Shown here one piece after another: positions 2,620 through 46,557 of a stretch of 64,000 bases of DNA. A model generated the notes under the pieces. It ran no database searches and was not told the origin of the DNA. It saw only the letters and a list, made by a program, of their open reading frames with translations. The number at the start of each line of letters is the position of its first letter. The first letter of the stretch is position 1. This DNA comes from Phycisphaerae bacterium. GTDB lineage: Bacteria; Planctomycetota; Phycisphaerae; FEN-1346. The DNA lies in contig DATKXP010000079.1 in the NCBI GenBank assembly GCA_035529015.1, positions 5,513 to 69,512 on the forward strand, read 5' to 3'. The translations under genes and the position numbers were made by a program.

Positions 2620-2841
2620 ATGGCCGATGACGGCCCAGAAATGGCGAAAACGCTGAACCCGGCAGCCCTGACAGTCGCCGATGCCGCCAGGATTCTCACG
2701 GCCGCCGGCGGCGGGGCCGTCACCGCGGAGATGATCCAGGCCGACTTGGACGCCGGCGCGCCCACGAACGCCGACGGGACCATCAACCTGGTGCACTACA
2801 CGGCGTGGCTCGCGAGGGAGGTGACCTCCGGTGAAGGTTGA
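2620..2841 (+). CDS. small DNA-binding protein in small-terminase position
   Basis: 73 aa directly upstream of and overlapping the large terminase; shares an L-x-PA-x-L ... L-x-x-Y-x-AWL motif with the TerL N-terminus. Confidence 0.45.
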   Translation: MADDGPEMAKTLNPAALTVADAARILTAAGGGAVTAEMIQADLDAGAPTNADGTINLVHYTAWLAREVTSGEG

Positions 2842-5095: not shown

Positions 5096-5265
5096 GTGAG
5101 AACGCGACAGAGGAGAAACGCGGGCTGGAATGCCGTCACTGCGGCTGCCGGCACTTCCGCGTCATCTACACCCGCCCCGCCTGGGGCGGGCGGATTATGC
5201 GGCGGCGGGAATGTCGGAACTGCGGAAAGAGAATGACGACGTGGGAGCGGCCCCTCGGCGGATGA
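5092..5265 (+). CDS. small zinc-ribbon protein (57 aa, not in ORF track)
   Basis: Read by eye: GTG 5092 overlaps the TerL stop (GTGA); VSENATEEKRGLECRHCGCRHFRVIYTRPAWGGRIMRRRECRNCGKRMTTWERPLGG with CxxC...CxxC. Confidence 0.45.
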   Translation: MSENATEEKRGLECRHCGCRHFRVIYTRPAWGGRIMRRRECRNCGKRMTTWERPLGG

Positions 5266-5524
5266 TGGGGCCGACTCCGCACGGATTGGGAACTCGGCGG
5301 TTGCCCTATGACGCCAGCCACGGCGGGTCTTATGCCGGTCAGCATGACACTCCGCCCCAAGATGGTGGCAAGGCCAAGGTCTACTTCTCGGCGCCCTCCA
5401 GGCAGATCGCACGTTGGGCGCAGGGCATTCGAGATCTCGCCTGCAACGATGACGCCCCAGCAGTGGGCGCGCTCCGAGTACCGCGTGTGACGGAATCCGC
5501 AGTCCCGTTGAGCAGAAAAAGCAG

Positions 5525-5553
5525 TTGAAACACGCTTAGAACTGTGGCATAAG
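5525..5553 (+). promoter_or_regulatory. candidate sigma70-like promoter for the cargo operon
   Basis: TTGAAA, 17 nt spacer, CATAAG, about 90 nt upstream of the gatA-like ATG; weak -10. Confidence 0.25.
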
Positions 5554-5644
5554 GGATGTCGTGCCCGGTCTGTGCGGAAGTTGGGGCGCCAGTGTGGTGT
5601 TGTGTCTGCGCTCGCGCCGGCTGGGGCCAGAGGATAGGCTCAAC

Positions 5645-7093
5645 ATGGATCTGTCAAAGAGCACAGCTCACCAGCTGAAGTCGCTCATCGCTGGCGGCGA
5701 GACAACTTGTCGTGAGGTCATGCTTTCAGTACTGGAGGAGATCGAGCGCCGAGAGTCTGACGTGCAGGCTTTCATTACCGTTCGGGATCGCGGCGAGTTA
5801 CTTGCGGAAGCGGATGAGGTCGACCGCCGACGCAGCCGCGGCGACGCGATCGGCGCGTTGGCGGGGCTGCCGATCGCCGTTAAAGACAACATCTGCACTC
5901 AAGGAATGGCAACCACATGCGCATCCCGAATGCTGGCAGACTGGGTTCCCCCGTATGACGCAACCGTGGTTCAGCGAATCCAAGCAGCCGATGGCATCAT
6001 ACTGGGGAAGACGAACCTCGACGAGTTTGCCATGGGTTCGAGCACAGAGAACTCGGCAATGAAGACCACGCGGAACCCCCACAACCACGACTACGTGCCC
6101 GGGGGGACAAGTGGGGGGTCGGCGGCCGCTGTGGCCTCTAACGAGTGCATCTTGGCCATTGGCTCAGACACCGGAGGATCCATCAGACAGCCTGCGTCGT
6201 TCTGCGGAGTCGTCGGCATGAAGCCGACCTATGGCAGAGTGTCGAGATATGGCCTCATCGCCTATGCCTCGTCGCTCGACCAGATTGGGCCGATTGCCAA
6301 GGACGTGAGAGATGCCGCCCTCCTTCTCGAGGTGATTGCAGGACACGATCCCATGGACTCGACGAGCCTGGCGGCCGGCGTTCCGGGATACGTCGCGGGC
6401 CTTGGGAGCCAACGAGGGTTCCGGTTTGGCGTTCCCGATGAGTACTTCGGGCCGGGCGTGGACAGACAGGTCCGCAGGGCCGTAGAGGGAGCCATTGACG
6501 CCCTCAAGGAAGACGGCCAGGAAGTGGTACAGATCAGCCTTCCCCACACTGAGTACTCGGTAGCCGCGTACTACATCGCCGCGTGTTCCGAGGCTAGTTC
6601 AAATCTCGCGCGTTATGACGGATGCCAATACGGCTTCCGCGCTGAGGGCATCGGCGATATGATAGGCATGGTCAGCGAGACCAGAGCAGAGGGCTTCGGC
6701 CCGGAGGTCAAACGCCGAATCATGCTCGGAACCTACGCCTTGAGCGCTGGCTACTATGATGCATACTACCTGAAGGCCGCCAGGGTGCGTAGGCTCATCG
6801 CTCAGGACTTCGAGTCCGCATTCAAGACCTGCGACGTCATACTGCACCCTGTTGCCCCAACAGCAGCCTTCAGGATCGGCGAGAAGATCGATGATCCCCT
6901 GGCCATGTACTTGGGTGATATCTTCAGCGTGACGGCCAACCTAGCTGGCCTTCCGGCCACAAGTGTCCCTTGCGGACGCACGAGCGAAGGGCTGCCCGTC
7001 GGCATACAGTTGACAGGAAAAGCCCTCGACGAGGGGACGCTGCTCGCTGCGGCTTATCATCTTGAATGCCTGCTCCGGAGTTCTGCCGCATGA
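5645..7093 (+). CDS. gatA: Glu/Asp-tRNA amidotransferase subunit A paralog (amidase signature family)
   Basis: Near-canonical GatA blocks: AVKDNICTQGMATTCASRML, GKTNLDEFAMGSSTENS, GGTSGGSAAAVA, GSDTGGSIRQPASFCGVVGMKPTYGRVSRYGL; start taken at ATG 5645 (MDLSKS). Confidence 0.85.
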   Translation: MDLSKSTAHQLKSLIAGGETTCREVMLSVLEEIERRESDVQAFITVRDRGELLAEADEVDRRRSRGDAIGALAGLPIAVKDNICTQGMATTCASRMLADWVPPYDATVVQRIQAADGIILGKTNLDEFAMGSSTENSAMKTTRNPHNHDYVPGGTSGGSAAAVASNECILAIGSDTGGSIRQPASFCGVVGMKPTYGRVSRYGLIAYASSLDQIGPIAKDVRDAALLLEVIAGHDPMDSTSLAAGVPGYVAGLGSQRGFRFGVPDEYFGPGVDRQVRRAVEGAIDALKEDGQEVVQISLPHTEYSVAAYYIAACSEASSNLARYDGCQYGFRAEGIGDMIGMVSETRAEGFGPEVKRRIMLGTYALSAGYYDAYYLKAARVRRLIAQDFESAFKTCDVILHPVAPTAAFRIGEKIDDPLAMYLGDIFSVTANLAGLPATSVPCGRTSEGLPVGIQLTGKALDEGTLLAAAYHLECLLRSSAA

Positions 7094-7626
7094 GCGGGGA
7101 TGACATGGACACGATTCCCTGGGAAACAGACGCCACCTACCCCGACTGCCTGGGGAACCATATTCGGCTTTTGCGACGCTCCTTGCCCGACGTGGAGAGT
7201 GCGAAGAGCAAAGAACTGCTCCCCTTCTTCCACGAGACGTCATCGTTCGTACTGGAGTCCTTCGTCCCTGAACGCGACAAGGAGAGGGTACGGGGGAAAC
7301 TCCTAAGGTTAGACCTCGAGCCAAGTGTCGCTCGTGCGTGCATCCTCTCACATAGGCACACAGACGAGTATCTATGGCTGATCCATGCAGTTGCGCGAAC
7401 GCTGCTTACTGTCTGGAGGCTGAACGACCTGCTTGAAGCCGTACAAGTCGAGCTAGAAGGCCGCAGATCGGTTCTCCACATGCAAATGGGGGGGGAGCAT
7501 CTGCTCTGCCTGTTCGATAACCAAGGCCGAGGCGTGGGATGGTGTGAAGAACTGGCAACGGAGGCCCGTGCGTTCAGTGAGAACACCGTATGGCCCCGCG
7601 GCAACGGCCGCGAGCGTGCTCGTTAG
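7090..7626 (+). CDS. hypothetical protein coupled to the gatA paralog
   Basis: ATG 7090 overlaps the gatA stop (ATGA); 178 aa; no motif recognised; does not resemble GatB or GatC. Confidence 0.5.
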   Translation: MSGDDMDTIPWETDATYPDCLGNHIRLLRRSLPDVESAKSKELLPFFHETSSFVLESFVPERDKERVRGKLLRLDLEPSVARACILSHRHTDEYLWLIHAVARTLLTVWRLNDLLEAVQVELEGRRSVLHMQMGGEHLLCLFDNQGRGVGWCEELATEARAFSENTVWPRGNGRERAR

Positions 7627-7726
7627 GCCCAGCACGCGAGAATACAAGAGTGGGTGAGGGGTGCCTATTCGCCCCCAAGGCGACAGAACGGCACTGGGAC
7701 AACCCACGGGATCGGGACAGAGGGCA

Positions 7727-8263
7727 ATGTCAAGAAGCTTATTAGACTATGCAATTCTGCTTGGCTCTTACGTGGGCATTCCGGTAGGGGCCCTCGTGTT
7801 TGAGATCGGGCTAAAGGCACTGATGGCTTTTGCGGCGGATTGGTCAGACCGGACGAGAGGCGAGCGCGGGCGTACGGCGTTGCTCACGGGCGGCGATTCC
7901 CCTTCGGGTTACTCGTTCTGCGTGCTGGGACTTGCCACAGGCTTGCTCATAGCGCTGAACAGAGACCGATTGGCTGATTCCTCGACCTGTCTCCGGGACT
8001 GGCCTGTGCTTAGCCTGATTGCTTCCACGGTTCTCTCTTCACTGTCTCTGGGGGTGGCGAGCGTGCTGTGTGTTCGCATTCGATCATCCGAAATGTATGA
8101 GAGAAAGGTTTTGCTAAGTAGGCTGGTGATTGCTCCGAAACCAGGCTGGGATCGCCTGAGAGGAAGGCTCGAGCGCGCGCGAGCGAGGAAGTTGCGAGCT
8201 GTTGTTGCCGCTCTTGGGGTCTTCTCGCTGTTTGTGGCTTCCGCGGTGTTCTTTGGCATCTAG
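7727..8263 (+). CDS. multi-pass membrane protein
   Basis: Four hydrophobic helices (e.g. YAILLGSYVGIPVGALVFEIGL, FCVLGLATGLLIAL, VVAALGVFSLFVASAVFF); start uncertain (7661 or 7727). Confidence 0.5.
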   Translation: MSRSLLDYAILLGSYVGIPVGALVFEIGLKALMAFAADWSDRTRGERGRTALLTGGDSPSGYSFCVLGLATGLLIALNRDRLADSSTCLRDWPVLSLIASTVLSSLSLGVASVLCVRIRSSEMYERKVLLSRLVIAPKPGWDRLRGRLERARARKLRAVVAALGVFSLFVASAVFFGI

Positions 8264-8275
8264 GGGGGGCCGACT

Positions 8276-8689
8276 GTGGAGTTGCTCTTGTTCCTATTGG
8301 CAGGCCTGATTGCCTCGTTTGCGGCGGGGCTCATCGCGGTCTACGTGGTTGAGGCTCGCGTTGCTCCCGCGTTCGCGCGGTGGCTCCTGCGCACGCCAAG
8401 CGGGAGACGGCTGCGGGTAGCCTATCTGCTCGGCTTGTTGCGCCGCTTCGGGAGGAAGCTGCGCGGGCTCCGAGGCAGAGAGACGCCTGAAAGGGCTGAC
8501 GGTCGTGCTCATACGGCGGGCGGCATGCGCACTATGATGATCATCGTCACATTGCGCCCCGCAACCGATTGCGGTAAGCGCTGTGGGGTGGTCGGCCAGC
8601 GATTCGCTTCGGCTGCCTTCCGTGAAGCAGGTTGGCGTTCGCGGGGAGACTGGGTGCTTGTCAAGCATGGGCGAGGGCCCGTATTATGA
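8276..8689 (+). CDS. possible small single-pass membrane protein
   Basis: N-terminal helix LLLFLLAGLIASFAAGLIAVYVV then Arg-rich low-complexity tail; the true stop may be effectively earlier; weak. Confidence 0.3.
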   Translation: MELLLFLLAGLIASFAAGLIAVYVVEARVAPAFARWLLRTPSGRRLRVAYLLGLLRRFGRKLRGLRGRETPERADGRAHTAGGMRTMMIIVTLRPATDCGKRCGVVGQRFASAAFREAGWRSRGDWVLVKHGRGPVL

Positions 8690-8792
8690 GGGAGCTCGGT
8701 TGCAGGCGCAGATCATCACTCCGCGTGAACGCGGGGCGCGAGGCTCCCGAGGGCCTGCACCGGAGTCTGTCAGTATCTAAAAGGGGTAACTC

Positions 8793-10469
8793 ATGAGAAC
8801 GGTAGCGTTTTACAGTTTTAAGGGAGGAACGGGCAAATCGCTCGCGGCTGCCAACATGGCCGTCTGCCTCTCGCGCCTCGGCAAGCACTGTGCGGTTGTC
8901 GATCTCGATTTTGACTGCCCGACCCTTCATCTGAAATTCGAGAATCTGTGCGACCATGCGCCAGGCGCAGGCGGGGTCGTGGACTTTGTCCGATCCCACA
9001 CCAAGGGAGACCCCTGGACAGGCTGGAACTCGGTGAAGTTGGTAAGCAGCCGGAAGGCGCAGAAGCCGCTGTCTGACTTCACCTACCCCGTGCCGCAGCG
9101 AGGCGCCGATCTTGGCACGATTCACCTTATCGCGGCCGGTGACTACATTCACCAAGAGGAATACTTGGCAAGTGTTGCCAGTCCTGTCTGGACTATGCTC
9201 TTCGCCAGTGACGTAGGGCTCGGGGTGGGGGCCTTCACCGCGAAGCAGGCCTCCCAGTGCGAGAGATTTCTGGAAAGCTTCAAGGAACAGGTGTCGGACC
9301 TCAGCCCTGAACCCGAGTATTTTCTCCTCGACCTCCGCAGCGGTTTTGGGCCACTGAGTCGGACAACCATCAGGCTCTGGGCGGATGTCGTCGCCGTTTT
9401 CCTGGCAAGCAACGTTGAGAGCGTCAGCATTCTTAGCGGGATGCTGAGAGAGATGCAGGCTTGGTTTGACGGACCACTGACTTATGAAGCGGTTGTTCCG
9501 GTGCTGACCCGTACACCCATGACCCTCGAGACCGGGCGGGGAGTCGAGGTGAAGCAGACTATTCTTTCGATGCTTTCCTTGCAAGAGGACGAACTATACT
9601 ATCTGCATTCAGACCGCGACGTGGAGATGTTCGAGCATTTGCGGCTCGGGCTGTCGCATATGCCGCACAACTGCCTCCTTTCTCACGAGTATGTCCGGCT
9701 GTTCGCTCGACTCATGCTTCCCGCGAAGGAGTATGCAGGGCAGGATGTAACGGAACAAGTGGACGAAATGGCTAGGGCGATCAAATCAAGTATCAAGCTC
9801 GGCCAGTTTGTCCAGTGGAAGGACCGTGTGTTTAGGCTCGAGACGGAGCGCGGCGCTCTTATCAACCCTAGTGACAATGCACGCAACGTTTCATTCAAGG
9901 TGGAGACCATAAAGCTCCTACTGCACAGTTTGCGGGAGGAGTTGCTGACCCCGGCGGAGGCAGAACAGGCTCAGAGCGGGCACGATGGCACGGAGTCAGG
10001 GGCGGCGCCAACCGACGAGCCCACTGGGTTCGAGCAGGCCCTGCGCGTGGCAGGAGCGGAGTGTGGCAAGAGATTCGGCTCTGTGTTGATAAACGACGTC
10101 TGGCGTCTGAAAGGGCCAGCCAAGGAGAATCATGAGGACTGGGTGAGGAAATGGTCCGACTTCGACTCGGACGTTGGTTTCGGGCGGTTCGCACCCAAGT
10201 CAGGGAGTTTGCGCGTTGAGGGAGGACGACTGACCTCCTGCAAAATCGTTCTGCGAGAGAGTTTCCTCGCGCCTGCTCACGATTCCGAGTACGGGGACCA
10301 TGCTTTGTGCAGTTTCATCAGCGGATACATCGAAGGCGTTCTATCACACATACTCGGAGGCACCTATACGGTCATCCACGAAATTCTCGGATACGAGGAC
10401 GAGCAGTCGAGAAGCGAGAGCTGCGTGTTCAAGGTTGCGAAGAAACCAACAGGCACGACGGAGACGTAG
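8793..10469 (+). CDS. ParA/MinD-like P-loop ATPase fused to a C-terminal V4R-like ligand-binding domain
   Basis: N-terminus MRTVAFYSFKGGTGKSLAAANMAVCLSRLGKHCAVVDLDFD (deviant Walker A); C-terminus HALCSFISGYIEGVLSHILGG...ESCVFKV resembles 4-vinyl-reductase (V4R) domains. Confidence 0.65.
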   Translation: MRTVAFYSFKGGTGKSLAAANMAVCLSRLGKHCAVVDLDFDCPTLHLKFENLCDHAPGAGGVVDFVRSHTKGDPWTGWNSVKLVSSRKAQKPLSDFTYPVPQRGADLGTIHLIAAGDYIHQEEYLASVASPVWTMLFASDVGLGVGAFTAKQASQCERFLESFKEQVSDLSPEPEYFLLDLRSGFGPLSRTTIRLWADVVAVFLASNVESVSILSGMLREMQAWFDGPLTYEAVVPVLTRTPMTLETGRGVEVKQTILSMLSLQEDELYYLHSDRDVEMFEHLRLGLSHMPHNCLLSHEYVRLFARLMLPAKEYAGQDVTEQVDEMARAIKSSIKLGQFVQWKDRVFRLETERGALINPSDNARNVSFKVETIKLLLHSLREELLTPAEAEQAQSGHDGTESGAAPTDEPTGFEQALRVAGAECGKRFGSVLINDVWRLKGPAKENHEDWVRKWSDFDSDVGFGRFAPKSGSLRVEGGRLTSCKIVLRESFLAPAHDSEYGDHALCSFISGYIEGVLSHILGGTYTVIHEILGYEDEQSRSESCVFKVAKKPTGTTET

Positions 10470-10514
10470 CCTCGCGCTTGTGCATGGGCCGTACGTCCGA
10501 TGGAGGGATAGGCT

Positions 10515-11588
10515 GTGGCGAGCAAGTCGCGGGTCTGCCTGATATATACAGGCGGAACGATCGGGATGCAGAGGCTGTCGGACGGCACGCTCACCCCCCC
10601 TGACGACCCCAGAGATTTCCTTCGCGTCGCGCCCGAACTGCCCAAGATCACGGAATTCGACTTCGTACCTCTGATGAACAAGGACAGCACGAATGTGCAC
10701 CCCGGGGATTGGACCGAGATGGCGAAGGCCGTCTATGAGCGGCGCCTGGCCGGGTACGATGGCTTTGTCATCGCGCACGGCACGGACACGATGCATTTCT
10801 CGGCGTCGGCCCTGGCGTTCGCCCTCGGCCCGAACCTCGACTTCCCCGTCGTCTTCACGGGGGCCCAGACGATCCCCGAGGTCAGCCACGGGGACGCCCG
10901 GGTCAACCTCCTGCGGGCCTGCAAGGTCGCCACGACGGACCTCGCGGAGGTGGTGATCTCCTTCGGCGACTACATCTTCCGCGGCTGCCGTGCCCAGAAG
11001 AAGGACGAGCGACGGTTCGACGCGTTCGAGTCGCCCGCCTTCTTCCCCCTCGGTTATATCACGGAGGAGATCGTCATCCAGCCCCTGGCGAAGCGCCGCC
11101 ATCGCCAGGACAACATCGAGTTGAGGGCGGACTTCGTGCAGGGCGTGCTCCAGGTCTCGCTGATCCCCGGCTTGGAACCGGAGCTTCTCGTGCCGTCCCT
11201 GGAATCGCCTTTATGCAAGGGCGTCATGCTCCAGTCCTTTGGGGCGGGGAACGTCCCCCACGAAAAACCGTACGCCTTCACAGAGTTTGTCCGTCAGGCC
11301 AGAGCCTTGAACAAGCCGGTAACCATCGCGAGTCAGTTCCCGGCTAATGCCACGCTCCACACGGCATACGAGCCAGGCCGCGCAGCCGTGCAGGCGGGGG
11401 CCATCCCCACGGGGAATATGACCAGTTCCTGCGCTGCTGCCAAGTTCCGGTGGGTGTTGGCTCAGGTAGAGCGTGAGATCCGCGAGGGCGCTGTTAGCGA
11501 ATCCCAAAGACTTGATCGGGTTGCCAAGATGATGCAGACCGTGTACGTAGGAGAAATGGACGTCCCGACTGAACGGATCCGACCGTAA
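10515..11588 (+). CDS. type I L-asparaginase / GatD-like amidohydrolase
   Basis: VCLIYTGGTIGM catalytic Thr motif, AHGTDTM second Thr motif, FTGAQ; 357 aa. Confidence 0.8.
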   Translation: MASKSRVCLIYTGGTIGMQRLSDGTLTPPDDPRDFLRVAPELPKITEFDFVPLMNKDSTNVHPGDWTEMAKAVYERRLAGYDGFVIAHGTDTMHFSASALAFALGPNLDFPVVFTGAQTIPEVSHGDARVNLLRACKVATTDLAEVVISFGDYIFRGCRAQKKDERRFDAFESPAFFPLGYITEEIVIQPLAKRRHRQDNIELRADFVQGVLQVSLIPGLEPELLVPSLESPLCKGVMLQSFGAGNVPHEKPYAFTEFVRQARALNKPVTIASQFPANATLHTAYEPGRAAVQAGAIPTGNMTSSCAAAKFRWVLAQVEREIREGAVSESQRLDRVAKMMQTVYVGEMDVPTERIRP

Positions 11589-11607
11589 TCTCAAAGGAGA
11601 GGCGGCA

Positions 11608-13119
11608 ATGGGAAATCTCAAGCCAGAGAACGCCGTGGCTAGAGTCTATATCCTGTACACCGGCGGCACTATCGGGATGGTACCTGAGGACCCGGACAAC
11701 CCAGCCAGCCCGCTCGTTCCGGCGAATGAGGACGAACTCAAGATGTACGTGCCGGGCTTGGGGGAGAAGGAGGGCATTCACTGGGAAATCGGGCGACTGG
11801 TGGACGAGAAGGGCGACGACGTTCCGCCCCTCGATTCGTCCGACGTTAACTCGGAGCATTGGATTTACATGGCAACGTCCATCGAGAAAGTCTACGACGA
11901 GTTTGACGGCTTCGTCATTCTCCACGGCACTGACACCATGGCGTACACGGCTTCAGGCCTTTCCTTCCTCCTAGCCAACCTGGCAAAACCGGTTGTCATT
12001 ACCGGTTCACAGCTGCCGATCTGCCAGACGCGGACCGACGCCGTTCAGAACTTCGTGAATGCCCTTTACATCGCCGGCTACAAAGCCACAGGCTTCCCTC
12101 TCGTGCCGGAAGTCACGATCTGTTTCGGCGACGTCCTGCTTCGGGGGAACCGCACGCGCAAGGTGAGCACCGCCTCATGGCAGGGCTTCGACACGCCCAA
12201 CTTCCCAAAACTGGGTACCATCGGCGAGCACATCCGGATCAACACCAACCTTGTCCGTCCACCAGCCGACAATGAGAAGGCCCCGTTTTTCGCTCACAAG
12301 ACCCTAGTTTCCGACGTAATGGACATGGGCCTGTTCCCGGGCCTTAGGGCCACTCAATTGGAAAGGCTCCTCGGCATGGAGGGCCTGAAGGGCATTGTCC
12401 TCAGGACCTTCGGTGCGGGAAATGCACCGAGTTACGACGATTTCCTCGATGTGATCGGGAAGGCCATCAGGGGCGAAGGTCAGGGGGGGAGACTTATCCT
12501 CAACGTCACGCAGTGCGTCGAGGGCATGGTTGAGATGGGCCTCTATGCAGCCAGCAGCGGCCTGCTTGAGCGTGGAGTCATCAGCGGCTTGGACATGACG
12601 CCCGAGGCAGCGTTGGCGAAGCTGATGTGGATACTTGCCACGGAGTCGGATCCTGAAGAGATCCAGAAGCAGCTCCAGATAAACCAACGCGGGGAACAGA
12701 GCCAAAACCTGTTTGACGTTCGGTATGGCGGGGCCGGCAAGAAGTCCGAACCGCAGGCAATCGTCAAGGTCTCCGCCCGGCCTTCGGGCCAGTTTGACAA
12801 GACCGCTCTCCACCGCGCCGTCCTGCGCATTTCGGGCGTGGGTTTCGCAGACACGGCAGAGGGCGAAGATGTAGGGCTGCGCGTGTTCATCAACCTGCCC
12901 GGAGCAACTGCCGACACGCCCACAGCCGACCCGCACTTCGCGGCGGCTTTCGAGGAGAAGTACAAGGGGCCGAAGGGCACGAGGTTTCTGCGAGAGGTGA
13001 CAGCTGCCGTCAACAGGGTGGTCGAGTCCGGACGGCCGATCAACATCACACTTGTGCCGATGGGAGGAAAGAAGATCTGGTACGATGGCCTGTACCTGGC
13101 GCTATTCTGCAAGGCGTGA
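11608..13119 (+). CDS. asparaginase/GatD-like amidohydrolase with ~140 aa unknown C-terminal extension
   Basis: ILYTGGTIGM, LHGTDTMAYT, ITGSQLP motifs; 503 aa; C-terminal domain unrecognised. Confidence 0.75.
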   Translation: MGNLKPENAVARVYILYTGGTIGMVPEDPDNPASPLVPANEDELKMYVPGLGEKEGIHWEIGRLVDEKGDDVPPLDSSDVNSEHWIYMATSIEKVYDEFDGFVILHGTDTMAYTASGLSFLLANLAKPVVITGSQLPICQTRTDAVQNFVNALYIAGYKATGFPLVPEVTICFGDVLLRGNRTRKVSTASWQGFDTPNFPKLGTIGEHIRINTNLVRPPADNEKAPFFAHKTLVSDVMDMGLFPGLRATQLERLLGMEGLKGIVLRTFGAGNAPSYDDFLDVIGKAIRGEGQGGRLILNVTQCVEGMVEMGLYAASSGLLERGVISGLDMTPEAALAKLMWILATESDPEEIQKQLQINQRGEQSQNLFDVRYGGAGKKSEPQAIVKVSARPSGQFDKTALHRAVLRISGVGFADTAEGEDVGLRVFINLPGATADTPTADPHFAAAFEEKYKGPKGTRFLREVTAAVNRVVESGRPINITLVPMGGKKIWYDGLYLALFCKA

Positions 13120-13156
13120 ACCCGGCCCTGGCCCTCGGCTCAATAAGGCTTCTTCG

Positions 13157-13181
13157 GCGGCAGTTTCTGGCCGCGTTTCTT
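13157..13181 (+). terminator. weak hairpin plus T-rich tract after the second asparaginase gene
   Basis: GCGGC (13157-13161) pairs with GCCGC (13170-13174), 8-nt loop, then GTTTCTT; only a 5 bp stem. Confidence 0.25.
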
Positions 13182-13799
13182 GACAGATTTCCCTACACCT
13201 CGATCGGCCTTGGCCCGACAGTCCAGAGGCATGGCGGTCCCGGAAACGGGGCCCAGTCCGGGATCCAGGGAGCGTATACGCAAGATGGGGGAGAGAATGA
13301 CGTGCGAAGCGAGGGGTTCGTCACTGCCTGTTGGCCTCCGTGAGGAGGGACCCCATGCCGGGCCGCCCATTTGCGGTGCCAGCGTCTAGATGCGGAAGAA
13401 TCTGTGTCGAGTTGCAGTTTCCCGTCCCATTTCGCACTTCTCGTGTCGGTACAGGGCAGATGATGCAACCACTTTCGCCAACGTGTGATGTGGCGCGGCT
13501 TGAGGCGGAACTCAGCCTCGTGCCGCACGTGGACCGGGAGGAGGCCGTGCAGGAGGTGTGGCTCGCCCACCTGTCCGGGCGAAGACCCTATAAGCAGGTT
13601 TGCCATCCGCCCCCGTCTGGCTGGGCCAATCAGCAATCCGGGCCGCCCGTCGCTCTTTGGCCCAAAGCCGATGCCATAAAGCCCTAATTCCTTGGCGCCC
13701 ACTTGACAGGCTGTTACAATTCAACAGCAATCCCTGGTCCACCTGCGTTTGTGCAAAGGCGGGGATCGGCGACGCGCCGAAAGAGTGGAGGATGGCGGC

Positions 13800-14537
13800 A
13801 TGTACGGAGCGAGAATCGATGTTCCTGTAAGGGAGTTCGCGCACATCTTTTTGCGATGTCCTGATGTGGCCTTGAGAGACATTGAGGATATTGTGCTCAC
13901 AATCCGTCGCTTAGACCACGCCGTTGAGGCTGGTGATTGGGCAGCGACGCCTTGCTTGTGGAGACGACTCCGCTTTCTGACGGCACCTCTTGAGGAGAGC
14001 TGGCGCTCGGTCAGCGCGGCGGAAGTGGAGGAGTTGCAGATCTACGAACGGCATGAGAAGGACCTTCGGCAAGGCAAAGGTGTCATAGAGGGGCGCCTTA
14101 GTCGCATTCTTTACTTAAAGTCCGCCGACATTAACATCTATCGTCGGAGCTTGGCCTGCCGTGCAGGCCAGAAGCTTTGCCCTGACGTCTACAAAGCGCT
14201 CCGCGCGACGGATACGTTCCGGGAACTGTGTGATGATGTTGCAGACGTTGAGGAAGACTTGGTCAGGCCGAACTTCAACTTCCTTGTTCTCGCGCAGCGA
14301 TTGAGCGTGGATCCGGTAAGCGTGGTATGCGCAGAGTTCGACGCCTTGCTCGGCGTAGCTCTGGCTACACTGCGAAGACTGTGCGCTGGTGGGGCTCTGG
14401 ATGCTGAGTCTTGTGCCGTGCTGGAGGCGGCGATGGCTGATGAGGAAGAAAGGTTCAGGGCATTGATCCCTGAGAAGCTCGGCTGGCTGGCCCTTGCCGG
14501 TGGCGGGAGGACGGTGGCCTCGGTGGGGGCAGCGTAA
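13800..14537 (+). CDS. hypothetical all-helical protein
   Basis: SD GGAGGA 7 nt before ATG 13800; acidic LCDDVADVEEDL segment; no firm family assignment. Confidence 0.5.
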   Translation: MYGARIDVPVREFAHIFLRCPDVALRDIEDIVLTIRRLDHAVEAGDWAATPCLWRRLRFLTAPLEESWRSVSAAEVEELQIYERHEKDLRQGKGVIEGRLSRILYLKSADINIYRRSLACRAGQKLCPDVYKALRATDTFRELCDDVADVEEDLVRPNFNFLVLAQRLSVDPVSVVCAEFDALLGVALATLRRLCAGGALDAESCAVLEAAMADEEERFRALIPEKLGWLALAGGGRTVASVGAA

Positions 14538-14541
14538 CAGT

Positions 14542-15450
14542 ATGGACCGGCAGCGTTTGCTTTCGAGAAGGGCTGTGCTGTTTCCGACAGATACGTCTTT
14601 CGAAGGACGTAGCCGACTTGCAGTTGCTGTCAGGTCGCGCGGTTGCGCACATGCGCGCTCGTTTGGACCGTGCATTTACTGTGCTTGCCTAAACGATCCT
14701 CTTTGTTGCCAGAGTCCGGACGTTGCGATAAGGGACTTCGCCGCGACGATTCAGGAGTACGCTGGAGAGCAGATAGATGTAGTAAGTCTGCTGTGTCCAG
14801 GTTCCTTTCTCGACGAGCAGGACCTGCCGCGGCACACCGCCGAAGAGATGGTGCGGAGCGCGATCGACTCTTTGCGTGTCGAGACGGTCACGGTGGAAAG
14901 CCGACCGACGTTTGTGTCGGACGCGTCTGTGGAGTGGCTCCGGGGGGCCGCCGCTGGTGCACAGGTCGAGATCGCGATCGGTTTCGATACTGTCTCGGAT
15001 TCGGTCCGTAACGGCGTTATCGGCAAGAAGATCTCAAGGTACGAGCTGCGTCGAGCAGTCCAGTGTGCGAAGAGGCGCGGCACTAGACCTGTGCCCTTCG
15101 TAGTTGCTCAACCGCCCGGCGTGACACGGGCTCAGGCAGTGGCCGAAGCCGTGAGCACCGTGATCTTCCTTCGGGACTTGGGGGTTACCGAGTGCTGGAT
15201 GGAGCCGGTTCTTGTGGTTGCAGGCAGTAGGCTACAGGAGCTCTGGGAGGCTGGGGAATACCGATTGCCGGAACCCAGTATTGTCGACGAGATCGAGGCA
15301 GCGTGCTCTGAGGTGATGGGGGTCCGTCGGGGTGGTGACATCGCGTCACCGAGGGTTGTTGCGCCGAGTGCCGTTGCAGAGAGGAGGACCCAACAGCATT
15401 GCCAGAGGACGGTGGCTGGTTGTTTCTGTGGTGTCAGCAAGAGCAAGTAG
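14542..15450 (+). CDS. putative radical SAM protein with non-canonical Cx8Cx2C spacing
   Basis: RGCAHARSFGPCIYCAC near the N-terminus; overall size and pattern recall the TIGR01210/RaSEA-type branch, from memory only. Confidence 0.5.
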   Translation: MDRQRLLSRRAVLFPTDTSFEGRSRLAVAVRSRGCAHARSFGPCIYCACLNDPLCCQSPDVAIRDFAATIQEYAGEQIDVVSLLCPGSFLDEQDLPRHTAEEMVRSAIDSLRVETVTVESRPTFVSDASVEWLRGAAAGAQVEIAIGFDTVSDSVRNGVIGKKISRYELRRAVQCAKRRGTRPVPFVVAQPPGVTRAQAVAEAVSTVIFLRDLGVTECWMEPVLVVAGSRLQELWEAGEYRLPEPSIVDEIEAACSEVMGVRRGGDIASPRVVAPSAVAERRTQQHCQRTVAGCFCGVSKSK

Positions 15451-15505
15451 TCTGAGCGCGGTGTTCTGAAGCTACAACTGAGTACGGGATCCGGAGCGTA
15501 CCGAC

Positions 15506-16798
15506 ATGCATATCTGCTTTGTCTCGCCTCGCCCCTCTTCGTCGGACGGCATCTTTGGCGTTGAGCCACTCCGTATACCTCCCTTGGGTCTCCTTATTCT
15601 TGCGTCCCTTACTCCGGACACGGTTAAGGTCGACGTATTCGATGAGCATCTGGAGGAGCTTCCAGATCTCAGCACTTATGACCTGGTAGGTATGACGTGT
15701 TCCACTGCTGCATCGACGAGGGCTTACGAGATTGCCGATCACTGCAAGAACCTTGGGGTTCGGGTAGCTCTCGGAGGATGCCATCCCTCCTTGCTTCCCG
15801 AAGAGGCACTTGGGCATGCGGACTTCGTCTTCGTGGGGCCGGCCGAGAGAACGTGGCCGCAGTTCATCTCAGAGTTCGCCGCAGATTCTGCTAGACGACT
15901 GTATAGCGACACAAAGCTTGGTAGGCTTTTGAATCTGCCCTTACCGGATTTCTCCAAGGTCGCAAGACTCGCGCCGCGATATGGCACTATGAATGTAGCG
16001 CTCTCAAGCCTGGGCTGCAGTCACCGGTGTGCTTTCTGTACCGTCTACGCCTCCTCTGGGATAGGCTTCAGGCCGAGACCGATTGAGGATGTTGTTCGAG
16101 ACCTTAAGCCCATGAGCGGGCAGTTTGTGTGGTTTGTTGATGACAACCTCTATTGCAATCGGGAGTATGCGCTAAGGCTCTTCCGGGCTATCGAGCCCCT
16201 CCAGCTCACATGGCTGAACCAAGCGAGTATTTCAATCGGCCATGATCTGGACACGCTTGTAGCCGCGAAAAGGAGCGGCTGCATCTCTCTGCTGATAGGA
16301 CTGGAGTCACTTTCGGCGCGGTCCCTGAGAGCAAGCCGCAAGACCTGCAATGTGCCGGACGAATACAGATCCTGTGTTGATGCCATACGGGGGGAGGGAA
16401 TAGGTGTTGAGGCGGCTTTCATATTTGGGTTTGACGAAGAGGACGAGGGTGTCTTCGAAACGACGCTAGGGTTCTGCTACGATGCCGACGTTGAGCTGGC
16501 ACACTTCTCTATACTCACTCCTTTTCCGGGAACGAGCTTCTACGCGCGATGCCTTCGCGAAGAAAGACTTCTCAAACAAGAGTGGCGCTACTTTGATGGG
16601 TTTCACGTGGTGTTCAAGCCTGCTCTCATGTCCGCGGAGAGGCTTTTGCGAGGCTTCCGTGAGGCGTACCAGGAGTTCTATCGGCCGGAGGCAATAGCCC
16701 GTCGCCGCCGCCGCGCGGTCCAGCCGGCGTGGTATTTCTCGGCCATAAACAGGGACTACGGTGTGCTAGGCAGGAGTGCGGATTCAGGTGGAGGGTGA
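15506..16798 (+). CDS. B12-binding-domain radical SAM protein
   Basis: N-terminal Rossmann-like MHICFVSP...LLILASL...YDLVGMTC then LGCSHRCAFC (CxxxCxxC); 430 aa. Confidence 0.75.
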   Translation: MHICFVSPRPSSSDGIFGVEPLRIPPLGLLILASLTPDTVKVDVFDEHLEELPDLSTYDLVGMTCSTAASTRAYEIADHCKNLGVRVALGGCHPSLLPEEALGHADFVFVGPAERTWPQFISEFAADSARRLYSDTKLGRLLNLPLPDFSKVARLAPRYGTMNVALSSLGCSHRCAFCTVYASSGIGFRPRPIEDVVRDLKPMSGQFVWFVDDNLYCNREYALRLFRAIEPLQLTWLNQASISIGHDLDTLVAAKRSGCISLLIGLESLSARSLRASRKTCNVPDEYRSCVDAIRGEGIGVEAAFIFGFDEEDEGVFETTLGFCYDADVELAHFSILTPFPGTSFYARCLREERLLKQEWRYFDGFHVVFKPALMSAERLLRGFREAYQEFYRPEAIARRRRRAVQPAWYFSAINRDYGVLGRSADSGGG

Positions 16799-16803
16799 TC
16801 GAC

Positions 16804-17496
16804 ATGTGTGAGGCGGCAGGTGCGGAAGCACAGCCACTCCAAGACTACCGCGAGGAAGTGGAGACTCATTTCTTGGCCTGCACGGCGTTCGTTTTCTTGG
16901 TGAGCGCCGGTCACGGTCTGTCCCAGGTAGTGACGGGGTGGTTTGCCGAGAGCCCCTGGCTCCTCGGCTATGCCGCGTGGGTCGCTGCGTCGTTCATACT
17001 CTTCGGCTGTCATTGTAAGAAGTCCCGAGGGCCACACGGGGAATGGCTAAAGGCTCAGCAGGAGAAGCCTTGGCTCGTCATCTTGGTCGACCTGTTCATG
17101 ACGGGTGCGTTTGTGTTCTTGGCGGGGGGATGCAGAAGCGGCATGATGTTCCTTTTCTGCTGGTGCTTTCTCTTCGATACTGTCCTGCTTCTCCCCGTCC
17201 ACGGTGATAAGCCTCGCACGGTGCTGGCGATGGTTCTGTACGGTAGCCTGGCGCTCTTGGTTCTTGTGGCAGCGACGGTTCCGTATGAGGTCTGGAGCTT
17301 ACATCCCATGAATGTTGGGATGACGCCAGCAGAAGCCAGATTGAAACTGGGCGACAATGCTTGGCTGGTATGGCTCCAGTACGCGCTGGTGCTGTTGCTC
17401 ATTGTCGGGCTGTGCTACGCTTGCCTAGGGCTTAGACGTATTGCCCGGAGGCACCTGGCTGTTGCTGGCTTGGGAGGTGGCGCAGCGCGGAAATAG
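16804..17496 (+). CDS. multi-pass membrane protein
   Basis: Five to six hydrophobic helices; Cys/Phe-rich (MMFLFCWCFLFDTVLLL); start taken at ATG 16804. Confidence 0.55.
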   Translation: MCEAAGAEAQPLQDYREEVETHFLACTAFVFLVSAGHGLSQVVTGWFAESPWLLGYAAWVAASFILFGCHCKKSRGPHGEWLKAQQEKPWLVILVDLFMTGAFVFLAGGCRSGMMFLFCWCFLFDTVLLLPVHGDKPRTVLAMVLYGSLALLVLVAATVPYEVWSLHPMNVGMTPAEARLKLGDNAWLVWLQYALVLLLIVGLCYACLGLRRIARRHLAVAGLGGGAARK

Positions 17497-17507
17497 GTGC
17501 GGATGCC

Positions 17508-18851
17508 ATGTGGTATGTTATCGCCTACCTCGTAGCTGTCCTCGTGATTGGCGTGGCCGCAGCGCGGCGCCAGTCTGCCGAGGGCTTCATGATGGCGGAC
17601 CGCCAATTGGGTGCGTTTGCGGTAGGGAGTTCAGTCTCGGCGGGCTTCTTTGATGCCTTTGTGCTGGCGGTGTACGCTGGTTACGTCTATCAATACGGCT
17701 TGTCAGCGCTGTGGCTCTTTGTCGGTGTCGCGGTCGGACTGGGTGTCTTTGCGCTGATGGCCAGGCCTATAAAGGAAGCTTCCGATGCCGGGCGCTTCCA
17801 CACGATGGCCGACTACTTCTTCGCGCGGTTCCCACGCGACGCGAAGCCGGGTTATGCCGTCGCCGGTTTGCTGGTGGTCTTCTTTCTTGCCCTACTCCTT
17901 GTGCAGTTCATATTTGGCAGCCAAGTGCTCGCCTTTCTCACAGGTTGGAGCTACACGTCGTGCGTGCTGATCGTGGGGATTGTCGTGATGCTGTACATGG
18001 TTATCGGGGGGTTCCGGGCAAGCGTTCGCACGGACGTGTTTCAGTGGTTGCTGATCGTGCTGCTCGCGAGCATCGTGGCTCTTGTGGTGCGGAGAGATCT
18101 CGCACCATCCTGGGCTGCGGCGCGTCCCTTGGGCATCGGCATCGGTAAGAGTGCTGCCTTCCTTGTGATTGGGACGCTGAATACGATCGTGGCAGCGGAT
18201 CTCTGGCAGCGCGCTTATGCTGCGAAGTCCGTTCAGAGTCTGCGACGGGGACTGTTTCTTGCTGCTCTCATGCTCCCTCTCGCCGGCGCAGTGATTGGCA
18301 TCATAGCCCTGGCTACACGGCAGCAGTTTCCGGGCTTGGATGATCCTACTCAGGCTCTCCTGTATGGATTCGGACGGGCCTTGGGAGAAGGGTGGCGCGG
18401 TCTGGGGTTTGTCGTTTTGTTTGCCGCGATCATGTCCAGTGCAGACACGATGCTCTTCGTGATTGGCTCTAGCGTTGTCAAGGACTTCGCGGAAAGAAGA
18501 CGCCGCTGGACGGATGCAAGGAGGGTACGCCTTGTGCGCTACGCTTTGGGCGTAGCCGGTTTGCTGGGGGTGATTGTGGCCATTGCCGTACAGGACATAC
18601 TCACTATCGCTCTCAGCATAGCAGGGCTAGGTATTGGCCTGTCGCCGGCTGTTGTAGCCGTTCGGTTTTTCGATCCGCGAAGCATCTCCGTGTTCGTCAG
18701 CATCATGCTGGGTGCGGCCGCAGTTGGCGCTCTTCTTTTGAGTGGATACGTGATGCCCGAGACCTCCCTCGTATCACTGCCGGTAGCCCTGGTTGCGCTG
18801 CTCATAACTGAACTTCTCGCACGCATACGAGGGCGCGGGAAGAGTGATTGA
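17508..18851 (+). CDS. sodium:solute symporter (SSS) family transporter
   Basis: 447 aa, about 12 TM; N-terminal FMMADRQLG and MVIGGFRASVRTDVFQW blocks typical of the SSF family. Confidence 0.75.
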   Translation: MWYVIAYLVAVLVIGVAAARRQSAEGFMMADRQLGAFAVGSSVSAGFFDAFVLAVYAGYVYQYGLSALWLFVGVAVGLGVFALMARPIKEASDAGRFHTMADYFFARFPRDAKPGYAVAGLLVVFFLALLLVQFIFGSQVLAFLTGWSYTSCVLIVGIVVMLYMVIGGFRASVRTDVFQWLLIVLLASIVALVVRRDLAPSWAAARPLGIGIGKSAAFLVIGTLNTIVAADLWQRAYAAKSVQSLRRGLFLAALMLPLAGAVIGIIALATRQQFPGLDDPTQALLYGFGRALGEGWRGLGFVVLFAAIMSSADTMLFVIGSSVVKDFAERRRRWTDARRVRLVRYALGVAGLLGVIVAIAVQDILTIALSIAGLGIGLSPAVVAVRFFDPRSISVFVSIMLGAAAVGALLLSGYVMPETSLVSLPVALVALLITELLARIRGRGKSD

Positions 18852-19270
18852 CGACTGGAATCTGCTATCGTTTTCTGAGCGGTCGCTATTGGCGGCGATT
18901 CGGCTGCGGCCGGTGACCTGCTGAGTTCAGTGGGAACGCGTCACGCTAGACTTGGGACCTCAGTCGAGGGCATGCCGACGAGCAGGAAATCTCCCCAGGA
19001 GGTGGCGAGCGGTACGAGGAGCACGGGGCGAGACCCTCGTGTGGAAGGCCCGGCGGATGCGCGTTGCAGCAGGAAGTGCCACCGCAAGGGGCTGGATTGC
19101 ATCGCATAACGTACCATCAGGGCACGGACCGGGCGCCCCCCTGTGGGAAGCTCATATCTGGTCGCCCGTTCCCTTAGCTGGAATGCCCCCAAGGTCCACA
19201 TCCGTAACCATTTCACCTCACCACCCGAAAGTCTCTTCCGACCGCCCTGTGCCAACCGTATCATAGGATA

Positions 19271-19393
19271 GACAACCAGACCAGGCGACGATCCGGAGGC
19301 TGATCCCCACCGGGTTGCCACCGAAAGAATCAAGGCCGTTCGGGGCCGAACACCCGAGCGGCCTTCTCTTTTGGTTCGCCCGGCCTGGTTGTC
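19271..19393. repeat. long imperfect inverted repeat enclosing a terminator hairpin
   Basis: GACAACCAGACCAGGCG (19271-19287) pairs 15/17 with CGCCCGGCCTGGTTGTC (19377-19393); checked base by base. Confidence 0.55.
19332..19374 (+). terminator. intrinsic-terminator-like hairpin
   Basis: AAGGCCGTTCGGG (19332-19344) pairs with CCCGAGCGGCCTT (19353-19365): 13 bp with one G-U, 8-nt loop, followed by CTCTTTTGG. Confidence 0.55.
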
Positions 19394-19409
19394 GGACGGG
19401 AGGTAAGAG

Positions 19410-19601
19410 GTGGCCGACGACCTGGAACAGACGATTCGCGAGAACGCCCAGGGCCCTGCCGAGGCCACGGGCGATTCGGGTTCGATGCGCCAGCACGACC
19501 TGAAGGACCAGGTCGAGGCCGACCGTTACCTCGCCTCCAAGGACGCGGTGCGGAAGGGCCGGGGCTTTCGTCTGACGAAGCTCGTACCGCCGGGAGCATA
19601 G
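19410..19601 (+). CDS. small protein preceding the portal gene (gpW-position)
   Basis: SD GGGAGGTAAGAGG upstream; 63 aa; stop 3 nt before the portal start. Confidence 0.45.
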   Translation: MADDLEQTIRENAQGPAEATGDSGSMRQHDLKDQVEADRYLASKDAVRKGRGFRLTKLVPPGA

Positions 19602-19603
19602 GC

Positions 19604-35529: not shown

Positions 35530-35565
35530 CAGAGCCCTTGTTTGACACAGGAAGGCAGAATCTCT

Positions 35566-36741: not shown

Positions 36742-36743
36742 CG

Positions 36744-43068: not shown

Positions 43069-43144
43069 GCCGCATGTTTGACGCCCATCTTCAGGTTGCA
43101 CGGTGCACGATGGTGGTTGGCCGTCTAGTTGGGGGGGAGTCGTC

Positions 43145-46554: not shown

Positions 46555-46557
46555 CAC

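Follow-up and report, generated by a model that had tools for sequence, protein, structure and literature searches.

A helical protein and an Elp3/RaSEA-type radical SAM enzyme form a conserved pair in a prophage-borne operon with a possible link to C5 isoprenoids

Radical S-adenosylmethionine (SAM) enzymes of the Elp3/RaSEA clade are, to our knowledge, known only from tRNA and nucleobase chemistry. The clade member RaSEA requires complex formation with a group-transfer partner, ArcS, for its activity, and ArcS makes an adduct first (PMC11298593). Terpene-cyclase-fold enzymes such as KabA, for their part, prenylate amino acids, which are small polar substrates, with dimethylallyl diphosphate (DMAPP) (PMC13761273). 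Here we analyse 64,000 nucleotides of a Phycisphaerae bacterium (GenBank assembly GCA_035529015.1, contig DATKXP010000079.1, positions 5,513 to 69,512 of the forward strand; hereafter “the window”), in which the genes at 13800-18851 encode an all-helical protein, a Cx8Cx2C radical SAM enzyme, a B12-binding radical SAM enzyme, a Cys-rich membrane protein and a symporter of the SSS family. These genes are one horizontally acquired operon, which a lambda-like prophage carries as cargo at its terminase-gpW hot spot, and they point to a small-molecule pathway that is isoprenoid-linked and has not been described before. An initial annotation, made from the sequence of the window, had proposed a small-molecule modification pathway whose product could not be named, and our analysis supports this. 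What it missed is the helical protein as the conserved partner of a radical SAM enzyme, the link to isopentenyl diphosphate (IPP) isomerases, and the nature of the operon as prophage hot-spot cargo.

The conserved partner of the Cx8Cx2C radical SAM enzyme is the helical protein and not the B12 enzyme. Eight gene contexts were inspected for the pair, most of the related contigs being 2.6-5.4 kb long. The helical gene, with products of 228-245 aa, lies directly upstream of the radical SAM gene in L004, L005, L006, L007 and L094, and the radical SAM enzymes of the P0002-P0004 contigs, L007 and L094 are 36-59% identical to that of the window (59% in L094). The order is kept in the distant locus L175, where the radical SAM enzyme (P0006) is about 29% identical and the 282-aa protein encoded before it is homologous to the helical protein (hhalign probability 93.9%, E 1.6e-7) and retains K.AD...L and REVFDDIRDYHEDAATRSFN. 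The two genes are adjacent in six independent metagenomic loci. One of these, L094, was the only new locus in a metagenome scan with A2; A2 scans of genome contigs and viral contigs gave nothing, and a look-up of the SSS proteins of L004 and L005 returned the same short contigs only. The two proteins also occur as single polypeptides, with helical-radical SAM fusions in at least six protein clusters. The helical domain is N-terminal to the radical SAM domain in P0013, P0074, P0082, P0107 and P0119 (hhalign probability 89%, E 2.4e-6) and C-terminal in P0126 (hmmsearch E 9e-15). Because adjacency across loci is combined with fusion, gene context shows the helical protein and the radical SAM enzyme to be functional partners.

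IPP isomerases and importers are linked to this pair. The operon of L175 encodes, in order, an ABC permease, an ABC ATPase (Tau/Ssu type), the 282-aa helical homologue, the radical SAM enzyme, a membrane protein with 6 spans and, after it, a type 2 IPP isomerase (TIGR02151, 295.6 bits vs. a cut-off of 281.3), the isomerase gene overlapping the preceding one by 14 nt. In P0126 (750 aa) the RaSEA-like radical SAM domain and the helical domain are preceded by a type 1 IDI-like Nudix domain at the N-terminus (NF002995, 124.5 bits, just under the cut-off of 127). As judged from these profiles, two non-homologous isofunctional IPP isomerases have been recruited independently to the pair. The pair has an SSS transporter as neighbour in the window, L004, L005 and L006/L007, and a Tau/Ssu-type ABC transporter in L175 and L196. 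In L196 the fusion P0126 shares its operon with an SsuA-family binding protein, a permease and an ABC ATPase; TrmB-type regulators flank this operon, which adjoins DnaB and DnaX. In P0118 an ABC ATPase and an NMT1-type binding protein are fused to the radical SAM domain. A dedicated importer, as read from these contexts, almost always accompanies the pair. In the window, the symporter (PF00474, 81.8 bits vs. 22.8) is closest to PutP and PanF among NCBIfam models, below cut-off, with no equivalog (PutP, PanF, ActP) reached, and we presume that it imports the polar substrate of the pathway.

No Pfam, NCBIfam or PADLOC model matches the helical protein, and a word-indexed homologue search of 5.8 billion clusters with its family returned four proteins, so that only about five sequences are known from these clusters. 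A PDB sequence search with this family gave nothing significant, the sole match, DNA ligase III (E 0.054), being spurious. The residues R5, E12, D39, E43, E86, K107, D110, R135, R141, E142, D145, D146, D149, E152, D153, F159 and N160 are invariant, and the motifs LKSxDxxxYRR and RELxDDxxDxxEDLxxPNFN are strictly kept (alignments A1 and A4). In the second motif, DDVAD (145-149) is followed by ED (152-153); D145, D146, D149, E152 and D153 do not vary in seven sequences, and the fusion proteins retain D145, D149 and D153 while E152 is conservatively replaced by Asp. By sequence, the protein possesses the Asp-rich DDxxD metal-binding motif of class I isoprenoid synthases. The AlphaFold2 model (mean predicted local distance difference test score, pLDDT, 85; predicted TM-score, pTM, 0.83) is a soluble all-helical bundle of about 12 helices in which DDVAD lies at the C-terminal end of a long helix. 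In the model, the all-α bundle and the Asp-rich motif at the end of a long helix resemble those of class I isoprenoid synthases, including KabA and DabA. In a Foldseek comparison of the model with the PDB, prenyl synthases, terpene cyclases and UbiA accounted for nearly all of the top 50 matches, among them the synthases of solanesyl, geranylgeranyl and octaprenyl diphosphate, aristolochene synthase, 2-methylisoborneol synthase and the N-prenyltransferase DsKabA. Unrelated helical folds scored far lower, and a Foldseek comparison with viral structures gave no match.

We propose, from the model, that the helical protein is an enzyme that binds Mg2+ and diphosphate, adopts a class I isoprenoid synthase fold and acts as partner of the radical SAM enzyme. 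This fold assignment is a lead and not a statement of family membership; it is made credible by the linkage of the pair to IPP isomerases, which also suggests that DMAPP could be the substrate, as it is for KabA (PMC13761273). Distant stand-alone relatives of the helical protein are encoded in two other Planctomycetota genomes (G098:C140, L182 9645-10385, E 9e-10; G193:C220, L183 7346-8095, E 1.4e-7). They keep a DIEDDLxQYxEDxxxxxYN motif and have no adjacent radical SAM gene.

The product of the second gene is, on sequence and model evidence, a genuine radical SAM enzyme of the Elp3/RaSEA/MnmL clade, because the three cluster cysteines (C35, C44 and C47) are invariant in 63 aligned family members and the model forms an Elp3-like barrel. 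The initial annotation had regarded Cx8Cx2C in place of CxxxCxxC as a peculiarity of this protein. The motif is indeed present, but it is the norm of the family: among 150 RaSEA-like representatives the first spacing is 8 (58), 9 (47), 7 (23) or 10 (5), which places 133 of the 150 within 7-10, and Elp3 shares the long first spacing. The same annotation had made its reading of the protein depend on the fold, and the radical SAM barrel is there. The AlphaFold2 model, built on the 63-sequence alignment (pLDDT 92.1, pTM 0.89), alternates strands and helices, with a tail modelled at pLDDT <50. Its best Foldseek match is the radical SAM domain of Elp3 (E 1.5e-11, TM 0.63-0.68); 121 PDB entries match at E <=1e-3, and among the matches listed 50 of 50 are radical SAM enzymes. 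An alternative start at GTG 14575, which would give 291 aa, is favoured by gene callers on identical metagenome contigs.

Among NCBIfam models the enzyme matches TIGR01210 (RaSEA) best, with 100.1 bits and the cut-off of 212.15 not reached, followed by MnmL/YtqA and Elp3 (TIGR01211, 17.5 bits vs. 350); Pfam PF04055 is also below its cut-off (25.1 vs. 29.5 bits). In a PDB sequence search, the queuine lyase QueL (6p78; phmmer E 0.033, 16.6 bits) was the only match spanning the cluster region. This match is not significant by sequence, and queuine lyase is absent from the top 50 structural matches of the model. The enzyme is rare in the form seen here. An exhaustive HMMER search of 1.84 billion representatives gave only four 50%-identity clusters with E <1e-30, namely itself and P0002-P0004 (36-43% identity), a word-indexed homologue search found only the enzyme itself, and it is not encoded in any of 30 host relatives, four of which are genomes of the host's own genus. 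In the family tree the window enzyme and P0002-P0004 form an isolated four-member clade with 100% support. The C-terminal Cys-rich module (NCxxC...CxC) of most RaSEA-like proteins is missing; P0002-P0004 stop before it as well and reach 63-87 bits with TIGR01210.

The comparison with ArcS-RaSEA brings out both likeness and difference. The window enzyme belongs to the RaSEA sequence family and has the same long Cx8-9Cx2C motif, and both systems link a radical SAM enzyme to a partner enzyme; in ArcS-RaSEA the partner builds an adduct first and the complex is obligate (PMC11298593). On the other hand, the window enzyme scores less than half of the RaSEA cut-off, its clade lacks the C-terminal Cys-rich module, its partner is an unrelated all-helical Asp-rich protein instead of the TGT-like ArcS, and the pair is bacterial and found with importers and IPP isomerases, with no tRNA-modification context. 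Elp3 is the best structural match and has a very similar cluster loop (C.H......CIYC). At about 550 aa, however, it is considerably longer than the 302-aa window enzyme, which has no acetyl-CoA-binding KAT/GNAT domain of the type found in Elp3.

Fusions to other domains are seen elsewhere in the RaSEA-like family, which comprises roughly 830 hits. P0007 carries an N-terminal SIR2 domain. P0023, P0109, P0113, P0125 and P0045 have acetyltransferase-like domains at the N- or C-terminus, which recalls Elp3 with reversed domain order; this GNAT call comes from reading the sequences, and Pfam gave no confirmation for P0023. In L178 (3329-5358), a stand-alone B3/4-domain protein of the tRNA-binding type comes directly after P0005 (TIGR01210, 174 bits), and both lie within an island that contains an integrase and helix-turn-helix regulators. 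P0013 (221.8 bits) and P0118 (239.1 bits) pass the RaSEA cut-off of 212, and their automatic annotation as archaeosine enzymes would probably be wrong.

From the observed gene order, folds and motifs, the conservation and fusions of the pair, and its linkage to IPP isomerases and importers, we infer substrates, chemistry and product as follows. The explanation we favour, tentatively, is a pathway that is coupled to import, draws on DMAPP or IPP and in which partner enzyme and radical SAM enzyme follow a logic like that of ArcS-RaSEA. The SSS symporter would import a small polar substrate. The helical enzyme would then bind a C5 prenyl diphosphate (DMAPP or IPP) via Mg2+ on DDxxDxxED, and couple or ionise it onto the imported substrate in the manner of KabA and DabA. 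Acting probably as a complex with the helical protein, the radical SAM enzyme would take a hydrogen atom from the adduct by means of a 5'-deoxyadenosyl radical, so that the adduct might be cleaved, rearranged or cyclised, like the ArcS-made adduct on which RaSEA acts. In the window locus alone, the B12 radical SAM enzyme would add one more step, most likely a C-methylation. The adduct-processing radical step is proposed by analogy with ArcS-RaSEA, and KabA provides a precedent for the use of DMAPP on a small polar substrate. The host makes DMAPP and IPP, since IspH and two polyprenyl synthases are present. It has no IDI-2, and squalene/phytoene synthase was found neither in the host nor in any of 13 host-clade genomes.

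Several observations weigh against an isoprenoid pathway. The Foldseek matches of the helical model are weak (E 0.05-0.6, TM 0.35-0.56), even though probabilities reach 1.00. An hhalign comparison of alignment A4 with 12 polyprenyl synthases of the host clade gave a probability of 0.2%, and no Pfam terpene or prenyl family matches the protein, which at 245 aa is also much smaller than class I isoprenoid synthases. These enzymes usually have two separated metal motifs, whereas DDxxDxxED...FN is contiguous and a second motif (NSE/DTE or a second DDxxD) is not evident in the sequence; the invariant acidic residues E12, D39, E43, E86 and D110 could serve as alternative metal ligands. The window operon itself contains no IPP isomerase, and the isomerase linkage comes from two distant relatives out of the eight contexts. 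The SSS transporters of different loci are not clearly orthologous, and their membrane proteins have no detectable homology (hhalign probabilities <1%). Given the length of most related contigs, neighbouring genes may be missing. Finally, all characterised relatives of the radical SAM enzyme that we know of (Elp3, RaSEA, MnmL and queuine lyase) act on nucleobases.

The analysis nevertheless exposes an enzyme partnership that has not been described previously, that is widespread and yet rare in its window form, and whose isoprenoid link can be tested. A deep branch of the Elp3/RaSEA clade is tied to an unannotated, terpene-synthase-like helical protein by adjacency, by fusion and by two non-homologous IPP isomerases, and importers accompany the two. 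If DMAPP or IPP is indeed used, the pair would stand for a radical SAM chemistry of a new kind, directed at hemiterpenoid adducts, and the helical protein for a minimal prenyl-diphosphate enzyme family that is likewise new. The single-polypeptide IDI-radical SAM-helical fusion P0126, and the operon L196 in which it is encoded together with an importer, are practical objects for such a test. There is also a warning for annotation, as P0013 and P0118 would be mislabelled as archaeosine enzymes. A bolder version, about which we are doubtful, holds that the pair is a radical enzyme system of C5 isoprenoid metabolism that was not known before, spreads as a self-contained import-plus-enzyme cassette and was mobilised by a phage in this instance. 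It might serve the salvage or formation of IPP/DMAPP from an imported precursor, or the making of a new hemiterpenoid metabolite or cofactor.

Could the pair, like its characterised relatives, act on a nucleobase, a nucleoside or tRNA? The radical SAM enzyme would then be RaSEA- or queuine lyase-like, with C-N bond chemistry on a 7-deazapurine or some other modified base, the symporter would salvage a modified base or nucleoside, and the helical protein would be non-catalytic or present the substrate. The nearest named families are all tRNA or nucleobase enzymes, as are the best structural match (Elp3) and the single PDB match across the cluster region; the relative P0005 precedes a B3/4 protein of the tRNA-binding type, and salvage pathways typically consist of one enzyme and one transporter. 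We consider this rather unlikely, as the radical SAM enzyme is far under every family cut-off and the operon and related loci contain no TGT, ArcS or Que gene. TGT- or ArcS-like neighbours were sought in the window and in the eight related contexts, and the whole genome was not searched for ArcS. Moreover, a deazapurine pathway leaves the two types of IPP isomerase unexplained, and the invariant acidic motif of the helical partner is typical of metal/diphosphate catalysis.

The setting of the operon was deduced from base composition and from comparison with related phages. The host metagenome-assembled genome (MAG) comprises 5.6 Mb in 701 contigs with 66.9% GC, and its RpoB is 81-83% identical to those of Planctomycetales and Planctomycetaceae MAGs and of Zavarzinella. 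In the composition profile the operon lies in a stretch of 58-61% GC that interrupts a lambda-like prophage, and it is the final module of a low-GC cargo island (Table 1). The right edge of the island falls at 19182-19188 (~19185), where the window begins to share nucleotide identity with the sister phages L013 and L014; their portals are 94-98% identical to that of the window, and upstream of ~19185 their DNA is different. Across more than 50 related IMG/VR phages the terminase-gpW gap ranges from 84 bp to >9 kb, compared with 14.3 kb in the window, and it holds type I-E Cas genes (Cse1 and Cas7) in L059, GmrSD in L075, and MazG with an IrrE-like M78 peptidase in L027. The terminase-gpW junction is a variable cargo hot spot of this phage family. 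GC at third codon positions (GC3) is 0.61-0.69 in the operon, 0.76-0.82 in two upstream asparaginase genes, 0.70 in an upstream amidase gene and 0.87 in the phage genes. The island is a mosaic, and the operon is foreign DNA because its GC3 departs from that of the phage genes. No direct or inverted repeats longer than expected by chance flank the island. The strong terminator-like hairpin at 19332..19365, which belongs to the shared phage backbone just 3' of the cargo, would stop read-through from the operon.

Like the prophage cargo/defence hot spots known from P2 and from lambda-like moron sites, the site of the operon varies in length and content among sister phages and carries defence genes in some of them. 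It differs in that its content here looks metabolic (importer and enzymes) and matches no known defence system; a metabolic cassette stands where sister phages carry CRISPR-Cas or restriction genes. A role as anti-phage defence or counter-defence cargo, through production of a toxic or protective small molecule as in viperin-type radical SAM systems or through depletion of a metabolite during superinfection, seems to us unlikely. Beyond the variable gap and its contents, this idea can draw on the SspABCD module in the same prophage region, the SIR2 fusion of P0007 and the presence of viperins among the structural matches of the radical SAM model. It is difficult to reconcile with the PADLOC result, in which none of the five operon proteins matched (E <=0.01), and with the L196 pair, whose metabolic-style operon combines a substrate-binding-protein importer with TrmB regulators and has DnaB and DnaX next to it. 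Defence systems do not typically include importers or IPP isomerases, and metabolic morons occur in hot spots too.

The B12 radical SAM enzyme is a class B enzyme, with an N-terminal cobalamin-binding domain (PF02310, 37.2 bits vs. 32.1), a CxxxCxxC radical SAM domain (PF04055, 42.6 vs. 29.5) and a DUF4070-like tail, in agreement with its initial annotation as a B12-binding-domain radical SAM enzyme with CSHRCAFC. It shares this architecture with the class B methyltransferases HpnJ, BchE, HpnR and PhpK. Its scores are below all named cut-offs (HpnJ 89 vs. 577.6, BchE 67 vs. 481, HpnR 52 vs. 650, PhpK 48 vs. 600), and it belongs to a large unnamed family with hundreds of homologues of about 40% identity in heterogeneous, unrelated contexts. 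Together with the RaSEA score of its neighbour (100 vs. 212), this means that neither radical SAM enzyme maps to a well-known housekeeping family, a point on which the initial annotation had asked for a check. That annotation had also treated the two radical SAM enzymes as a pair, a view we could not sustain: the B12 enzyme is absent beside the pair in L004, L175 and L196 and was seen only in the window. It is a lineage-specific accessory and not a conserved partner, and it is probably a methyltransferase or catalyses another B12-dependent tailoring step.

A small multi-span membrane protein adjoins the pair in every locus with visible flanks. We considered whether the helical protein and both radical SAM enzymes could tailor a membrane isoprenoid lipid, acting on a polyprenyl or hopanoid-like molecule with the Cys-rich membrane protein as the lipid-facing component. 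The top NCBIfam matches of the B12 enzyme are indeed lipid enzymes (HpnJ, 89 bits; a ladderane-type lipid B12 radical SAM enzyme, 56; HpnR, 52), a membrane protein is always found with the pair, and UbiA is among the fold matches of the helical protein. We nevertheless regard this as improbable, given that the lipid-enzyme scores are 5-10 times below the cut-offs, that squalene/phytoene synthase is absent throughout the host clade (0/13 genomes) and that the B12 enzyme does not recur alongside the pair; dedicated importers that include a soluble binding protein, moreover, favour a water-soluble substrate.

The five genes of the operon are close-packed on the + strand, with successive gaps of 4, 55, 5 and 11 nt. 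All five, as well as both cluster motifs and the acidic DDVADVEEDL patch, were recovered at the positions given by the initial annotation, and its multi-span protein followed by an SSS symporter is likewise borne out. The operon tentatively looks like its own transcription unit, because a terminator-like hairpin (13157-13174) follows the upstream asparaginase gene, and a promoter-like site and GGAGG, 8 nt ahead of ATG 13800, precede the helical gene. The promoter-like site is a consensus match only, one being found where 1.8 are expected by chance. No riboswitch or other Rfam family was detected within 12900-19700.

Table 1. Coordinates of the operon, its signals and the surrounding prophage features in the window.
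Feature	Position	Strand	Description
Terminase large subunit	2831-5095		Pfam GpA_nuclease
Low-GC cargo island	5100..19185	+	~14.1 kb, between the terminase large subunit and the gpW-like gene
GatA-like amidase	5561-7093		PF01425, 515 bits
Promoter-like site	13692..13720	+	TTGGCG-17-TACAAT with TG extension (extended -10), ~80 nt before the helical gene
Helical protein	13800-14537	+	ATG start, 245 aa, DDVADVEEDL at residues 145-154
Radical SAM enzyme	14542-15450	+	302 aa, CAHARSFGPCIYC (Cx8Cx2C) at residue 35
B12 radical SAM enzyme	15506-16798	+	430 aa, CSHRCAFC at residue 171
Membrane protein	16804-17496	+	230 aa, 9 Cys, ~5 hydrophobic spans (hydropathy)
SSS symporter	17508-18851	+	447 aa, PF00474
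Terminator-like hairpin, strong	19332..19365	+	13 pairs, 9 G-C, then T run
gpW-like gene	19410-19601		63 aa
Lambda-type portal	19604-21064		Pfam Phage_portal_2; capsid and tape measure come after

The gap at 13120-13799 contains two open reading frames (ORFs), 13116-13343 and 13355-13687. In both, GC at the second codon position is 0.53-0.55 and GC at the first and third positions is flat, unlike in all real genes here, and a comparison with the region upstream of the closest relative, L094, revealed neither similarity nor a counterpart of the ORFs. We thus agree with the initial annotation that a precursor peptide is not apparent, neither 13120-13799 nor ~16700-16810 containing a conserved or coding-like small ORF. 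Maturation of a small ribosomal peptide encoded nearby (a peptide made by the ribosome and then modified post-translationally, RiPP) by both radical SAM enzymes is very improbable: pairs of a B12 and a second radical SAM enzyme do occur in proteusin-type clusters and there is a weak match to ApyD (53 bits), but this score is 14 times under the cut-off, no credible small ORF, RiPP recognition element, protease or exporter was found, and the conserved partner is an enzyme-like helical protein fused to radical SAM domains in six clusters. The 110-aa ORF 13355-13687 is called by metagenome gene finders and includes REEAVQEVWLAHLSG, which is similar to region 2 of extracytoplasmic function (ECF) sigma factors; as GC at its codon positions does not follow the pattern of a gene, the ORF may be the remnant of a decayed one or the similarity may be due to chance.

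Further upstream, the island carries the GatA-like amidase gene and, at 8793-13119, a ParA-like ATPase gene followed by two type I asparaginase/GatD-like genes. The ATPase is a KGGVGR variant with a long C-terminal extension (NF047398, 79.6 bits vs. a cut-off of 90). The amidase and asparaginase modules are separate cargo outside the helical/radical SAM unit. The initial annotation had placed these amidohydrolases in the same pathway, and we rejected their involvement because they do not co-occur with the pair in the eight other contexts, the GC3 of the asparaginases differs from that of the operon, and the terminator-like and promoter-like sites intervene. The GC3 of the amidase, unlike that of the asparaginases, does not differ from the operon's.

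Elsewhere in the prophage region, an ORF upstream of the terminase (375-1604) has a weak Radical_SAM match at its N-terminus (E 1e-4) and would be the third radical SAM-like gene of the prophage. Downstream of the prophage tail genes, a second stretch of low GC contains a complete SspABCD phosphorothioation module (35542-41791 and 43103-47526), with PADLOC scores of 404 (SspA), 348 (SspB), 559 (SspC) and 308 (SspD) bits. It is followed by genes for a PbeA-like helicase, an HATPase_c_3 protein and a PLD-like protein, which may be the restriction arm. At 48619-52376, a calcineurin-like phosphoesterase gene precedes a gene for an 877-aa SMC/AAA_15-type ATPase with weak matches to LmuB and AriA, and the two may represent an SbcCD-like or Lamassu-like defence system. 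A tRNA-Arg(CCT) gene on the minus strand (60133-60209), near the end of this low-GC defence region, may be the integration site of the entire prophage-and-island element.

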